The notes beneath the pieces are model-generated. The model saw only the letters and a list, made by a program, of their open reading frames with translations. It did no database searches and was not told where the DNA came from. Positions 4,081 to 7,357 of a stretch of DNA of 27,479 nt are shown here, one piece after another. Made by a program: the position numbers and the translations under genes. The first letter of the stretch is position 1. Each line of letters opens with the position of its first letter. Origin of the DNA: a virus. The stretch lies in UHGV virus genome UHGV-0150478; one strand, 5' to 3'.

Positions 4081-4284
4081 TTAGCTGTTAGCCAAAGCGT
4101 CTTTTAACATCGCCACAAGGTTTACTTCAGGCTTTTCCATTTTGGCGCGTTTGGGGCGGATAATAATTCGACCGTCAGCCAACATCTTTTTGCATGTATT
4201 AAGAGGGATACCTGTTATCTCTGCATATTTCTGCAGGGATACATAGGGGGCATTCACATTGATATTGATGGTTATACCTGACAT
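4081..4284 (-). CDS. Small HTH DNA-binding protein (AlpA/excisionase-like or CII-like regulator)
   Basis: 67 aa; segment VSLQKYAEITGIPLNTCKKMLADGRI is a typical helix-turn-helix; second gene of the early operon. Confidence 0.45.
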   Translation of the reverse strand: MSGITININVNAPYVSLQKYAEITGIPLNTCKKMLADGRIIIRPKRAKMEKPEVNLVAMLKDALANS

Positions 4285-4300: not shown

Positions 4301-4507
4301 TCAGGAAGATTTGTTTTGTTCTTTCTGGGTTAGCTCTAGGCCGCGAAGGAAGATCATGCGCGCCATGTTAGAGGATGAGCGTTGTTCTTTAGCTGCCATT
4401 TCATCAATGACGGCTCGCTCCTCGAGGGACAGCCGAAGTGCCAGTCTTGGACCTGTGGCGGTGTTACGCGGAATGCGTGATCTGGTATCGTGAAGAACTT
4501 GTTTCAT
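4301..4507 (-). CDS. Ribbon-helix-helix (Arc/MetJ/CopG-like) protein; positional analogue of P2 Cox / 186 Apl
   Basis: 68 aa; RLSLEERAVIDEMAAKEQRSSSNMARMIFLRGLE matches the RHH beta-strand plus two helices pattern; first gene of the leftward operon, divergent from the repressor gene. Confidence 0.5.
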   Translation of the reverse strand: MKQVLHDTRSRIPRNTATGPRLALRLSLEERAVIDEMAAKEQRSSSNMARMIFLRGLELTQKEQNKSS

Positions 4508-4582
4508 AGTGGTATATTGTGATCATCTAATAGCTCGTGAAATCATTTTGGTATCAAAAAAGATACCTGTCAAGGTTTTTGT
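4508..4582. promoter_or_regulatory. Divergent promoter/operator switch region
   Basis: 75-bp intergenic between divergent RHH and XRE genes. Inverted repeat GGTATC-A6-GATACC at 4550-4567, extra TGGTAT at 4510-4515, and minus-strand TTGACA at 4573..4568 with CAAAAT 17 nt downstream. Promoter assignment is by eye only. Confidence 0.4.
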
Positions 4583-4987
4583 ATGAAAAATGATATTGGT
4601 CAGCGGTTGCGTGAGGAAAGGGAAAGATTGGGACTTAGTCAAGTTGCCATGAGCGACATTGGTGGAGTCAAAAAGCTAACTCAGCTTAGATATGAGAAAG
4701 GAGATAGCTTTCCTGATGCTGCGTATTTGGCAGCGCTGTCTCGTTTTGGCCTTGATGTTCAGTATGTTGTGTTGGGAATTCACTCACCTGAAACTTATAA
4801 CGATGATGAGCAGGAATTGATTACTCGCTTTCGAGCAGCTTCGTTAGATGTGAAAAACGCGGTGATTGGGGCTTTAAAAGGTGCGATCAGTGAAAAGGAA
4901 ACTCAGCCATCAGGACGTGAGTTAAATATTTCTGGTGGTAATAACCGTATCGCTGGTCGTGACTATAACGAAACTAAGGGTAGGTGA
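4583..4987 (+). CDS. XRE-family HTH transcriptional repressor (immunity repressor candidate, C/cI position)
   Basis: N-terminus QRLREERERLGLSQVAMSDIGGVKKLTQLRYEKG is a classic Cro/C1-type HTH; first gene of the rightward operon that ends with int, as C in P2. Confidence 0.65.
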   Translation: MKNDIGQRLREERERLGLSQVAMSDIGGVKKLTQLRYEKGDSFPDAAYLAALSRFGLDVQYVVLGIHSPETYNDDEQELITRFRAASLDVKNAVIGALKGAISEKETQPSGRELNISGGNNRIAGRDYNETKGR

Positions 4988-5002
4988 TAGTAGGGAGGTG
5001 AC

Positions 5003-5653
5003 ATGGCCGTCAACTCAAACGGTTCAAACAATCGCGTTGCTGGGCGTGATTTTCACGAAAAGAATATTCAGATAGAGCGATATGATGGTTCTCATACCGT
5101 CAATATCGCAATCCCTTCGAATAATGATGATGACGATCGCCCTTTGCTTAAGGCTCAGCGTAAGGAGCTAAATAGCTTGGTTGCTGCTATTGCAGAAGCT
5201 AGCAATACTGAAGCGTTTATTATTTGGCAAAAAGTACATGCGGAGATTGGTGTAGCTGGTATTGATGATATGACAGTAAATCAATATAAAACAGCGGAGA
5301 GTTTTCTGCATGCAATGCTTGAGCGATGTAAAGATCATGATGCCTGTAAGGCTCTTGTAAGTTTATTACTACGTAACAGTGAAGACTGTGGACTTCGACA
5401 AAAACTTCTGCGGTATTGCCATATCAATTTCGGTACAGGACGTTTAAACGATCTTACTCGTTCTCAGTTACAGTCTGCATTGTCGTGGTTAGAGCAACAA
5501 TCGGCATCAAGCCACACAGAGAGTTCGACCTTACCAGAAGTCCGACTTCGTGCTTCAGAATTAATCCGACTTTATCCAAAAGAAATAATATTCTTTATCT
5601 GCGTAGGGGTTTTGGTAGGCGGTGTCATTTCTAGGGCGTTTTTTAATTTGTAA
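5003..5653 (+). CDS. Tail-anchored membrane protein, unknown function (cargo gene)
   Basis: 216 aa; single C-terminal hydrophobic helix (EIIFFICVGVLVGGVISRAFF); N-terminus repeats a motif from the C-terminus of the upstream repressor-like protein; AT-richer than flanking genes. Confidence 0.55.
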   Translation: MAVNSNGSNNRVAGRDFHEKNIQIERYDGSHTVNIAIPSNNDDDDRPLLKAQRKELNSLVAAIAEASNTEAFIIWQKVHAEIGVAGIDDMTVNQYKTAESFLHAMLERCKDHDACKALVSLLLRNSEDCGLRQKLLRYCHINFGTGRLNDLTRSQLQSALSWLEQQSASSHTESSTLPEVRLRASELIRLYPKEIIFFICVGVLVGGVISRAFFNL

Positions 5654-5682
5654 TCTTACTTGAGCTAAATTGAGGTAATGAT

Positions 5683-6030
5683 ATGAAAGTAAAAAAGGTT
5701 CAACTATTAGTTACTTTTTTATCTATGTTTTCTTTTTCCGCCGTCGCAATGCCTTTTAAAACTATTGAACGTGAGAGTTTCAATGGGGTATGGCCATTTA
5801 ATACTGATGAGGTTCAATTACAGTGTCTTGATGGTAATCCTTATGTGATGAATTTTGACGATAATAAGTTATATGCACTTACAGGTTTGGCTCGAATAAA
5901 AGGTAAAACATTTGGTGCGTTACCGTTAGATAACAATAATCCATTTTGGCTAGATAATGATGCCGCCCCAGGGTTAAAAAAGAGTCTGGGGGATGTCACT
6001 AAGGCTGCATTTGATTTATGTGATAAGTAA
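5683..6030 (+). CDS. Secreted/periplasmic small protein, unknown function (cargo gene)
   Basis: 115 aa; N-terminal signal peptide (MKVKKVQLLVTFLSMFSFSAVA, AxA-type cleavage site); two Cys in the mature part; AT-rich. Confidence 0.55.
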   Translation: MKVKKVQLLVTFLSMFSFSAVAMPFKTIERESFNGVWPFNTDEVQLQCLDGNPYVMNFDDNKLYALTGLARIKGKTFGALPLDNNNPFWLDNDAAPGLKKSLGDVTKAAFDLCDK

Positions 6031-6035
6031 CTAAA

Positions 6036-7037
6036 ATGTCGGTTCGTAAGATTCCATCAGGTAAATGGCTTTGCGAATGTTATCCCTACGGGGCATCGGG
6101 AAAACGCATTCGTAAACAGTTTGCGACAAAAAGTGAGGCGCTCTCTTATGAGCGCCGTTTAATGAATAGTAGAGTTGGAGACGAGTTTCAAGATGGTTCT
6201 GGTCCTCGTCTTTCTGAGTTGATTGCTCGCTGGTTTGAGATGTACGGTAAAACCTTGTCCTCTGGTGCAGAGCGCAAAGTCAAACTTGAGGCGATTTGTT
6301 CCAGGCTGGGAGATCCATTTGCTTCTCAGTTTGACAAAAATATGTTTGCTACTTATCGGGAAAGAAGGCTATCAGGAGAATGGAATCCCAAGGGGAAGAA
6401 AAAACTTAGTGAAGCAACCGTTAATCGCGAGCAGTCATATCTACATGCTGTTTTTGCCGAACTGAAGCGCCTTGGAGAGTGGTCTGGTGAAAACCCCCTG
6501 ACCGGTATTCGCAAGTTTCGTGAGGAAGAAAAGGAACTGGCGTTTCTGTATGTAGATGAGATTGAACGCCTTCTGATTGCGTGTGATGAGTCACGGAATA
6601 AAGATTTGGGGGTTGTTGTCCGTATTGGGCTTGCGACTGGTGCTCGGTGGAGTGAAGCAGAAGGATTAAAGCAATCTCAAGTACTGCCCGGTCGAATCAC
6701 ATTTGTTAAAACTAAAGGAAAGAAGAACCGCACTGTACCGATTTCACCTCAATTGCAAGCTATGCTTCCTAAAAAACGAGGAGCGCTATTTTCACCATGT
6801 TATGAGGCTTTTGACGCTGCAATTAAGAGAGCGAAGATCGAGCTTCCTGATGGGCAATTAACTCATGTGCTACGTCACACGTTTGCCAGTCATTTTATGA
6901 TGCGGGGCGGAAATATTCTTGTGTTGCAAAAAATACTGGGGCATAGCGATATAAAAATGACTATGCGTTATGCGCATTTTGCTCCAGGTCATTTAGAGGC
7001 TGCTGTTGAATTGAACCCTTTTGACAATAGAGGGTAA
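6036..7037 (+). CDS. int: Tyrosine recombinase, P2-family phage integrase
   Basis: 333 aa; conserved blocks GARWSEAEGLK, ITFVKTKGKKNRTVPIS, HVLRHTFASHFMMRGGNILVLQKILGHSDIKMTMRYAHFAP (R...HxxR...Y catalytic signature) align with recalled P2 Int; adjacent to att core. Confidence 0.9.
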   Translation: MSVRKIPSGKWLCECYPYGASGKRIRKQFATKSEALSYERRLMNSRVGDEFQDGSGPRLSELIARWFEMYGKTLSSGAERKVKLEAICSRLGDPFASQFDKNMFATYRERRLSGEWNPKGKKKLSEATVNREQSYLHAVFAELKRLGEWSGENPLTGIRKFREEEKELAFLYVDEIERLLIACDESRNKDLGVVVRIGLATGARWSEAEGLKQSQVLPGRITFVKTKGKKNRTVPISPQLQAMLPKKRGALFSPCYEAFDAAIKRAKIELPDGQLTHVLRHTFASHFMMRGGNILVLQKILGHSDIKMTMRYAHFAPGHLEAAVELNPFDNRG

Positions 7038-7143: not shown

Positions 7144-7198
7144 TTTAAAATCCCTCGGCGTTCGCGCTGTGCGGGTTCAAGTCCCGCTCCGGGTACCA
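7144..7198 (+). other. att core: 3' fragment of tRNA-Leu(UAA) (anticodon loop to CCA); no 5' half present
   Basis: Sequence TTTAAAATCCCTCGGCGTTCGCGCTGTGCGGGTTCAAGTCCCGCTCCGGGTACCA: anticodon TAA, long variable arm, T-arm GGGTTCAAGTCCCGC, acceptor 3' strand plus CCA. Upstream bases cannot form the 5' acceptor strand. Matches my recollection of enterobacterial leuZ 3' end. Confidence 0.8.
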
Positions 7199-7241
7199 TG
7201 GGAAAGATAAGAATAAAATCAAAGCAATAAGCAGTGTCGTG

Positions 7242-7266
7242 AAACCACCTTCGGGTGGTTTTTTTG
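7242..7266 (+). terminator. Intrinsic terminator downstream of the tRNA fragment
   Basis: 8-bp stem AAACCACC/GGTGGTTT with TTCG tetraloop (7242-7261) followed by T-run to 7265. Confidence 0.6.
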
Positions 7267-7357
7267 TATCTTCTTTTTCATTTCCGAAGATGCGTCCGAA
7301 GATGATTTTTCTCTGGACGCATCATCATTCATTTTCTCTGGCCACCAACTACGGGCA

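Follow-up and report, generated by a model that had tools for sequence, protein, structure and literature searches.

Mirrored, co-varying termini of a prophage repressor and its membrane-anchored neighbour in the lysogeny operon of a P2-like prophage

Background

Amyloid-signalling motifs were discovered by matching the C-terminal and N-terminal motifs of the proteins encoded by adjacent genes, and those of bacteria are about 25 aa long, with Q, N, G, V and I over-represented and K, P and L scarce. Such systems combine a sensor of the NLR or TPR type with a membrane-targeting, pore-forming death effector; examples are HET-S/NWD2 of fungi, the bacterial BASS motifs and Bab/Agp, an abortive-infection pair from a prophage hotspot of E. 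coli. Here we report the analysis of a 27,479-nt stretch of viral DNA (UHGV virus genome UHGV-0150478; the whole stretch is referred to as the window), in which the block 4583-7037 is proposed to be the lysogeny operon of a P2-like prophage, encoding an XRE-type repressor, two products of open reading frames termed ORF-A and ORF-B, and an integrase. The tail of the repressor and the start of ORF-A, a tail-anchored protein with a Flk_N domain, were found to mirror each other. This locus and the amyloid-signalling pairs have in common a short motif shared by the C-terminal end of one protein and the N-terminal end of the product of the adjacent gene. Here too the motif is enriched in G, N, Q, V and I, contains little K, P or L, and is disordered in the monomer model. 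The partners differ, being a helix-turn-helix (HTH) repressor and a tail-anchored Flk_N protein, and the motif has no sequence match to the known amyloid motif families.

In Salmonella and E. coli, Flk (Fluke, RflH) inhibits the flagellar export switch; it is a cytoplasmic protein, anchored to the membrane by its C-terminus, which acts by binding FlhA-C, as seen in a two-hybrid assay (PMC13344023). ORF-A shares with Flk the Flk_N domain and, as predicted, the cytoplasmic orientation and the C-terminal tail anchor, but it is shorter (216 aa versus 333 aa) and has one domain unit rather than two. Unlike Flk, it is phage-borne, linked to a repressor and common in Klebsiella, and the Flk-type proteins P0163 and P0171 are without the N-terminal mirrored motif of ORF-A.

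In P2 and 186, the two extra genes found here between the repressor gene and int are absent. In Gram-positive phages, sie2009 (Tuc2009) and ltp (TP-J34) lie between the repressor and integrase genes, are expressed in the lysogen and encode envelope proteins for superinfection exclusion, the exclusion of DNA injection having been demonstrated experimentally; they have no homology to the genes of the window. A cI-int slot of this kind is already known from Vibrio phage K139 of the P2 group, the record of which reads PL -> cI - orf2 (BRCT) - glo - int; the glo product is given there as a 'periplasmic protein; involved in phage exclusion'. As in the window, two extra genes stand between repressor and int on the lysogenic transcript of K139, and the second encodes a small periplasmic protein. 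K139, however, lacks a Flk_N gene and its CI repressor is of the 186 type (PF07022/PF16452), whereas in the window one of the two extra genes is fixed and repressor-linked. Rousset et al. (2022) described a cI-int defence hotspot in P2-related Vibrio phages resembling K139 (PMC9122126), and a 2026 survey placed 8% of P2 defence systems in the integrase-primase interval.

Results

The block comprises four genes, all located on the + strand. These are the repressor gene (4583-4987; 134 aa; Pfam HTH_31/HTH_3, and phrog_8 at 2.5e-14), ORF-A (5003-5653; 216 aa; phrog_5825 at 4e-103), ORF-B (5683-6030; 115 aa; PF10709), which encodes a periplasmic protein of the YebY/DUF2511 family, and int (6036-7037; 333 aa; Pfam Int_N at 5e-32 and Phage_integrase at 2.5e-22), which encodes a P2-type tyrosine integrase. 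The genes are separated by gaps of 15, 29 and 5 nt, respectively, and Shine-Dalgarno-like sequences were identified for ORF-A (GGGAGGTGA) and ORF-B (GAGGT). Since the block has no terminator-like site on its + strand, and the first such site is at 7241-7262, 3' of int, the four genes are very probably co-transcribed. An earlier note on this DNA had given the same coordinates and gaps, had likewise expected co-transcription in the lysogen, and had described the two genes as extra relative to P2 and 186, which agrees with general knowledge of these phages. Its description of the two-gene segment as AT-rich holds for ORF-B, which alone is markedly so (GC content 0.353), and not for ORF-A (0.413), which is near the repressor gene (0.437) and int (0.449).

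The C-terminal tail of the repressor carries the motif LNISGGNNRIAGRDYNE (residues 114-130; 4922-4972, + strand), which mirrors the N-terminal motif VNSNGSNNRVAGRDFHE of ORF-A (residues 3-19; 5009-5059, + strand). The repressor ends ...LNISGGNNRIAGRDYNETKGR and ORF-A starts MAVNSNGSNNRVAGRDFHEKNIQ; 10 of the 17 residues of the pair are identical (z = 9.8 against shuffles), with the same codon being used for four of these ten. The two genes lie in one reading frame and meet at the junction TGA TAG TAG GGA GGT GAC (4985-5002, + strand). A read-through fusion of the repressor to ORF-A was considered and is excluded, because three in-frame stop codons followed by a Shine-Dalgarno sequence part the genes.

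For comparison, 16 diverged loci from ten genera (Klebsiella, Rosenbergiella, Mixta, Izhakiella, Enterobacter, Kosakonia, Buttiauxella, Hafnia, Serratia, and variants of E. coli) were aligned gene by gene, and the mirroring was seen in every one of the aligned relatives. In distant Flk_N loci the sequence of the motif differs and the mirroring is retained, as illustrated by the repressor tails and following protein starts of L121 (QQFNGPVGTVTTGDVVN and QQFHGAVEQVAAGDIKN), L122 (SQTFNAPISGGEFAARDIVNH and TQEFNNQIHDGQFAGRDIVNN), L123 (QVFHGKVGQSIAGNV and QVFREDVGQAVAGDL) and L120 (VGQYIEGSVNQAG and VGQVAEGDINNFG). Altogether the mirroring was found in ten lineages, seven of which were scored and three further pairs read by eye. 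All seven tested pairs gave z = 4-12 against shuffles, and the sum of 371 obtained with the cognate pairing was reached by only 4 of 5040 permutations of the partners, the cognate pairing included; as the lineages represent linked genes, this test demonstrates co-variation at the level of motif classes and is not a phylogeny-corrected probability. Three or four classes of motif can be distinguished (NRxAGRD[YF]xE; QQF.G.V..V..GD..N / VGQ..EG..N; and FN..I.GQFAxRDIxN), each being matched within its own pair. For a remnant in Pectobacterium, a matching Flk_N neighbour was predicted from the repressor tail SQTFNGDISGQFAANQIIN before the neighbour was read, and the neighbour proved to be a Flk_N protein starting MRQEFNGTAQGQFSSRDIIN. 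In the other two pairs read by eye, from lineages in IMG/VR, the mirroring also agrees.

The partner need not be a Flk_N protein. In a Thauera metagenome-assembled genome (L119; 4293-4844), a repressor with the tail NRTAGRDY is followed by a 183-aa multi-spanning membrane protein of a non-Flk_N type, the N-terminus of which mirrors the tail, and it therefore appears that the membrane partner domain can be swapped while the mirrored peptide is kept. The match is kept at the protein level rather than by recent gene conversion, because just 37 of the 68 identical residues are encoded by the same codon in both copies, and nucleotide identity is 53-69%. The motif is 17-24 aa long and is among the best-conserved parts of both proteins. 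Its composition (16 peptides, 304 residues) is 14.8% G, 13.2% N, 11.5% V, 8.2% Q and 6.9% I, with 1.3% K, 1.0% L and 1.0% P.

In some of the ORF-A homologues of L109, L110 and L112, a second AGRD-like unit was observed after the first (e.g. ENRAASRDFHENNVQAGRDVIS, ENRTAGRDFHENITHAARDINI). These units are tandem pseudo-repeats, reminiscent of the two rungs of HET-s.

The order of genes was the same in 16/16 loci: cox and arc on the - strand, then the repressor gene, ORF-A and, further on, int on the + strand, with the start of ORF-A 8-43 nt 3' of the repressor gene. The adjacency of repressor and Flk_N genes also holds in every other related locus examined, including transposable prophages resembling BcepMu (with rve, Mu gp27, holin and SLT genes), short contigs and the Pectobacterium remnant. 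Two scans with single proteins for further loci found nothing. Because the order of the 16 loci is constant while the content between ORF-A and int varies, ORF-A is, on this comparison, a fixed part of the lysogeny module, and ORF-B alone occupies a swap slot. The earlier note had proposed a single, separately acquired two-gene cassette, which is wrong for ORF-A; it had named conservation in all relatives as the observation that would speak against a cassette, and this was what we observed for ORF-A, which directly follows the repressor in all of them. The suggestion that comparison of related P2-like prophages might reveal a variable region was borne out, in that the repressor-int region is a variable cargo hotspot, the slot itself holding only ORF-B.

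Within the repressor, the HTH part (about residues 1-66) is followed by a conserved C-terminal helix and then the tail. Among 15 relatives, the HTH domains fall into two to three immunity types (mean pairwise identity 53%, minimum 30%), and the C-terminal part, with a mean pairwise identity of 69%, is conserved above them. ORF-A tracks this C-terminal part rather than the cargo. Comparison of the window with L098 (4593-4985), an E. coli variant of 64% identity, showed the same NETKGR tail end and an identical TGATAGTAGGGAGGTGA junction with HTH types that are only 32% identical. The common tail with a different HTH domain places a recombination breakpoint within the repressor gene, the tail travelling with ORF-A. 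A profile search with the C-terminal part of the repressor returned mostly short gene calls of the same repressors.

ORF-A is annotated in RefSeq as 'membrane protein' (WP_000290355). It matches the NCBIfam model Flk (PRK10715) at 8.6e-16 over its residues 37-166, the match being to the N-terminal domain of the flagellar regulator Flk, and PF27202 (Flk_N) is annotated on homologues at 60-98% identity; the cutoff for the Flk equivalog was not reached (58.1 bits versus 353). A search of the Protein Data Bank (PDB) with the ORF-A sequence gave nothing significant. Among 1.84 billion representative proteins, the family forms 132 clusters at 50% identity and splits into a phage type of about 190-225 aa with one Flk_N unit, as in ORF-A, and true Flk proteins of 320-420 aa with two units. 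No HTH-Flk_N fusion protein was present among the 132 clusters, and such a fusion was rejected as the ancestral form, the nearest being a single Rha-like protein with part of the domain. This Rha-like phage regulatory protein (P0233, 270 aa) contains the first half of the Flk_N domain at residues 98-177, and ORF-A itself has a weak match (0.004) to the Ant antirepressor family phrog_245, which hints that part of Flk_N may be a module common to antirepressors.

In an AlphaFold model of ORF-A built on 15 sequences, residues 1-38, including the mirrored motif, are disordered (predicted local distance difference test, pLDDT, about 40), a domain of five helices spans residues 46-171 (pLDDT 80-90), and the chain closes with a helix at residues 192-214. 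The Flk_N helical domain thus corresponds to about 5138-5515 and the C-terminal transmembrane tail anchor to 5576-5644, both on the + strand. A hydrophobic stretch reaches the C-terminus in all homologues, with the linker and anchor being only 30% identical. ORF-A is therefore modelled as a cytoplasmic domain with a predicted C-terminal tail anchor, as in Flk. This agrees with the topology proposed earlier, one product being tail-anchored and the other periplasmic, as predicted from the terminal helix of the ORF-A model and from the signal peptide and YebY fold of ORF-B. The four Cys pointed out in ORF-A are present, of which only C139 is conserved in the family and the other three are not. 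A four-Cys metal site was considered and is unlikely because only C139 is conserved; a match to Pfam zf-P11 was below threshold. The statement that neither protein belongs to a known family did not survive profile searches, which assigned ORF-A to Flk_N (PF27202) and ORF-B to DUF2511/YebY.

Both genes are intact in the relatives, at 46-79% amino-acid identity for ORF-A and 58-79% for ORF-B, as compared with 70-95% for int. For ORF-A and ORF-B, nonsynonymous divergence (dN) was 0.24-0.38 and synonymous divergence (dS) was saturated, and the dN/dS ratio was 0.15-0.32 where computable, values which indicate that both are under purifying selection.

ORF-B is annotated in RefSeq as 'DUF2511' (WP_000865208) and matches PF10709 with 28.4 bits (gathering threshold 21), the same model being carried by its homologues. 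Residues 1-22 (5683-5748) have the features of a Sec-type signal peptide, with KxKK in the n-region, then a hydrophobic core and the cleavage motif AVA. In 12 phage-type homologues, W37, C48 and C113 do not vary, and they align to YebY at the same numbering. Foldseek searches with the AlphaFold model (pLDDT 73) matched YebY (7N0J; probability 1.0, template-modelling scores 0.63/0.74) and MlbQ (6QFP and 2MVO, both at probability 1.0), which were the sole matches in the PDB. ORF-B shares with YebY of the E. coli AZY operon the Pfam family, the fold, the signal peptide, W37 and the C48-C113 disulfide pair; with MlbQ, a lipoprotein of lantibiotic self-resistance (2MVO), it shares the fold but is not itself a lipoprotein. 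It is about 30% identical to YebY and MlbQ and differs from them in being a prophage cargo gene, placed 5 nt upstream of int for translational coupling to it. ORF-B lies outside the copper-operon context AZY (yobA-yebZ-yebY), being flanked by Flk_N and int, and is a member of a paralogous phage clade of YebY/DUF2511. In Enterobacteriaceae, yebY homologues with a XerD-like recombinase on one side and a phage CI repressor on the other have already been noted (PMC8689200).

The spacing between ORF-A and int ranges from 302 to 2247 nt, and in the 16 loci the slot holds at least eight unrelated occupants or none. A YebY homologue is found in the window, L047, L090 and L101, and also in Klebsiella, Serratia and Citrobacter. 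Elsewhere the slot is occupied by a BRCT/WYL protein of 288-292 aa (L095, L104), a WYL-BRCT protein together with a BRCT protein (L093), a BRCT protein of 291 aa (L106-108), an acidic DUF8087 protein (L098, L103, L109), a secreted protein of 201 aa (L091), a transmembrane protein of 242-244 aa (L102, L110) or a zinc-ribbon protein with an XhlA-like protein (L112), and in L111 it is empty. The overall size range of the BRCT/WYL cargo is 288-392 aa. In K. pneumoniae prophages, either YebY or a BRCT protein occurs at one att site. The orf2 product of K139 is 33% identical (3e-51) to the cargo of the Kosakonia and Enterobacter loci, and no homology was found between Glo and ORF-B (BLASTP E = 7.5). 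The alternative cargoes gave weak matches only (PDC-S48, WYL).

In the transposable prophages (L121:3597-4862 and L120:3638-4730), the Flk_N gene is followed by genes that include one for a TIR_2-domain protein (290 aa, L121) and small ORFs, and then by lysis genes. A cargo or defence slot thus seems to follow the module there too.

Upstream of the repressor gene, the region 4508-4582 separates the early lytic operon (- strand) from the lysogeny operon (+ strand). A perfect palindrome, GGTATC-N6-GATACC (4550-4567), lies beside the -35 element of a - strand promoter-like site (TTGACA-17-CAAAAT, 4573-4545), and TGGTAT(C) repeats are located at 4483, 4509 and 4549; palindrome and repeats are candidate operators of the switch. 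The early lytic operon starts in the segment 4081-4507 (- strand) with an Arc-like ribbon-helix-helix gene (4301-4507) and a Cox-like gene (4081-4284), following the annotation of Escherichia phage 520873 (NC_049344). By tblastn, the products are conserved in the 16 loci at 44-94% and 64-93% identity, respectively, and both genes are kept beside the module in all relatives. The annotations of this DNA conflict, RefSeq having a 45-aa ORF on the + strand (4356-4493) versus the Arc-like repressor on the - strand in NC_049344; the Arc-like gene is favoured because the - strand product is conserved (44-94%) in 16 relatives.

Downstream of int, host-type sequence flanking att (7144-7267) contains the terminator-like hairpin (7241-7262) that would close the operon. 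It is common to two tandem prophages, is present in 5425 of 5426 complete E. coli genomes and corresponds to the attP region in the annotation of phage mEp390. The left part of the window, up to this region, is the right end of an apparently complete P2-like prophage; from 7268 to 27479 a second, degraded prophage of the myovirus type is located in tandem at the same att site, and yecA lies beyond it, just past the right end of the window. The second prophage has an integrase fragment and partial Gp157 and RepO genes, followed by helicase, head, baseplate, sheath, tube and VgrG-like genes, and the same element is present alone at that site in other E. coli strains.

The window matches E. coli CEA601S at 99.5%, and 506 of the 5426 E. 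coli genomes carry the operon at 98% identity or more, including O157:H7, O111, O103 and the enterotoxigenic strain H10407. The block is 98% identical to Escherichia phage 520873 (NC_049344; Peduoviridae, Xuanwuvirus), which is the only deposited phage genome with ORF-A, where the gene is frameshifted; no match (E <= 1e-5) to ORF-A was found in P2, 186 or isolates of the P88 type. In phage 520873 (L001), ORF-A lacks an annotation and its match is split into three pieces, and the annotated int consists of two fragments, which reflects either sequencing frameshifts or a decayed prophage.

Discussion

We propose that the segment is organised in three layers, namely a repressor with its membrane partner, a swap slot and an integrase. 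The XRE repressor and ORF-A would form a conserved two-gene unit, with the Flk_N domain in the cytoplasm, anchored at the inner membrane. The N-terminus of ORF-A and the tail of the repressor would pair by homotypic beta-strand pairing, by which ORF-A would tether or sequester the repressor at the membrane and thereby set or switch the amount of active repressor. ORF-A would thus be a membrane-anchored modulator of immunity or induction, for a repressor without a self-cleavage domain. That ORF-A pairs physically with the repressor tail and controls the amount of free repressor has, in our view, about an even chance of being right, given the mirrored, co-varying termini and the constant gene order. 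The contact may be a soluble 1:1 one or a templated aggregation. The latter, for which we see a rather small chance, would make the two proteins an amyloid-like templating pair, in which a clustered ORF-A sensor would aggregate the repressor tail and switch off immunity in an all-or-none, RecA-independent manner; in this doubtful variant the clustering could be triggered by, e.g., envelope damage or superinfection.

Several observations weigh against physical pairing, or against its amyloid-like form. One Flk_N subtype, which has an N-terminal extension (L124), has no obvious mirrored tail upstream. Charged residues occur in the motif, and none of the Pfam models for known amyloid motifs matched it. 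The structural model of ORF-A is that of a monomer and is mute on pairing. Gene conversion may still have taken place episodically between the neighbouring copies, and the mirrored peptides could bind a common third partner instead of each other.

Binding of this last kind underlies a second explanation, which we consider somewhat improbable: both peptides would be ligands of a third factor, e.g. an antirepressor or one of the proteases FtsH, Lon and ClpXP, and ORF-A would shield the repressor by competing for this factor at the membrane, in the way that lambda CIII shields CII from FtsH. Mirrored and co-varying termini would be expected from such a decoy, as would its co-expression with the repressor, and the weak phrog_245 antirepressor match and the half Flk_N domain of the Rha-like P0233 point in the same direction. 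Three or four very different motif classes across distant hosts are, however, ill-suited to recognition by a conserved host factor, and the co-variation fits self-recognition, or a phage factor that co-evolves, better.

The earlier note had favoured the view that ORF-A and ORF-B are one acquired cassette for superinfection exclusion or abortive infection, which, as rexAB or sieB do, would act at the envelope without involving the repressor. Both products are predicted at the envelope and are probably made from the lysogenic transcript, the pairing of ORF-A with YebY recurs in at least seven genera, glo of K139 gives exclusion from the equivalent position, and TIR_2 and BRCT/WYL proteins are encoded 3' of ORF-A homologues. 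We nevertheless judge a joint cassette to be unlikely, since ORF-A is retained while the downstream gene is swapped for unrelated genes or for nothing, tracks the C-terminal part of the repressor and not the cargo, and has a GC content near that of the repressor gene and int; moreover, no PADLOC match was obtained, and the mirrored terminus would be left without a role. By analogy with K139 Glo, ORF-B could plausibly have an exclusion or abortive-infection role; for ORF-A such a role is less likely.

The mirrored termini could also be a relic without function, left by gene fission or by a tandem duplication and kept alike through occasional gene conversion, with ORF-A having an unrelated role. 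The common reading frame, the separation of 9-15 nt in several lineages and the distance of about 40-90 nt between the copies would suit such an origin. Synonymous sites have diverged, however, as the codon and nucleotide identities given above indicate, and the motif is among the best-conserved parts of both proteins. In addition, the mirroring persists with a non-Flk_N partner, and the fusion of HTH and Flk_N is missing from the 132 clusters, so that a relic appears quite improbable. That ORF-A is a prophage copy of Flk which manipulates the host flagellar type III export switch, affecting, e.g., motility or flagellin display in lysogens, is suggested by its domain homology to a membrane-anchored inhibitor of that switch (8.6e-16) and is very improbable, as ORF-A scores 58 bits against an equivalog cutoff of 353, has one Flk_N unit versus two, is invariably linked to a repressor and not to flagellar genes, and has its closest homologues in great numbers in Klebsiella pneumoniae, which is classically non-flagellate (P0095 occurs in 1158 blocks of the collection).

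In our reading of the swap slot, ORF-B would be lysogenic-conversion cargo, exported by Sec to the periplasm, where it would most likely bind an incoming agent. Its target might be a component of phage ejection, giving exclusion as with Glo of K139, or a peptide toxin, in line with the proposal for MlbQ. By these analogies, ORF-B is a reasonable candidate for a protective function at the envelope level. Some points argue the other way. Between lineages, ORF-B has diverged to the same extent as ORF-A (58-79% identity), and no other cargo is as frequent in the slot; it may be an old resident and not a recent acquisition. PADLOC, which has no model for either protein, matched no defence family with ORF-A or ORF-B. 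Furthermore, the function of YebY is unsettled, copper delivery having been proposed (PMC8689200).

A literature search found no paper linking phage Flk_N proteins, or amyloid signalling, to repressors, and the literature on CP-933T contained bulk expression statements only. As ORF-A is present in a single deposited phage genome, and frameshifted there, no experimental system was found in the literature. A module of repressor and Flk_N protein with co-varying mirrored termini appears to be undescribed.

Conclusions

A membrane-anchored partner that co-evolves with a repressor lacking self-cleavage, through mirrored peptides, represents a possible new route for controlling prophage dormancy, and the family to which ORF-A belongs hints at a common origin of host Flk and phage Flk_N proteins. 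Since the operon is carried by 506 of 5426 E. coli genomes, including major pathogens, any function it has bears on those pathogens. The slot 3' of ORF-A is, in addition, a compact source of new lysogenic-conversion and defence genes in Enterobacterales (YebY-like, BRCT/WYL, DUF8087 and TIR). If the mirrored peptides template each other, amyloid signalling would be extended from the control of cell death to phage gene regulation; this would be the first amyloid-signalling pair with a transcription factor, and not a cell-death effector, as its output, and would provide a prion-like induction switch common to P2-like and BcepMu-like transposable prophages.

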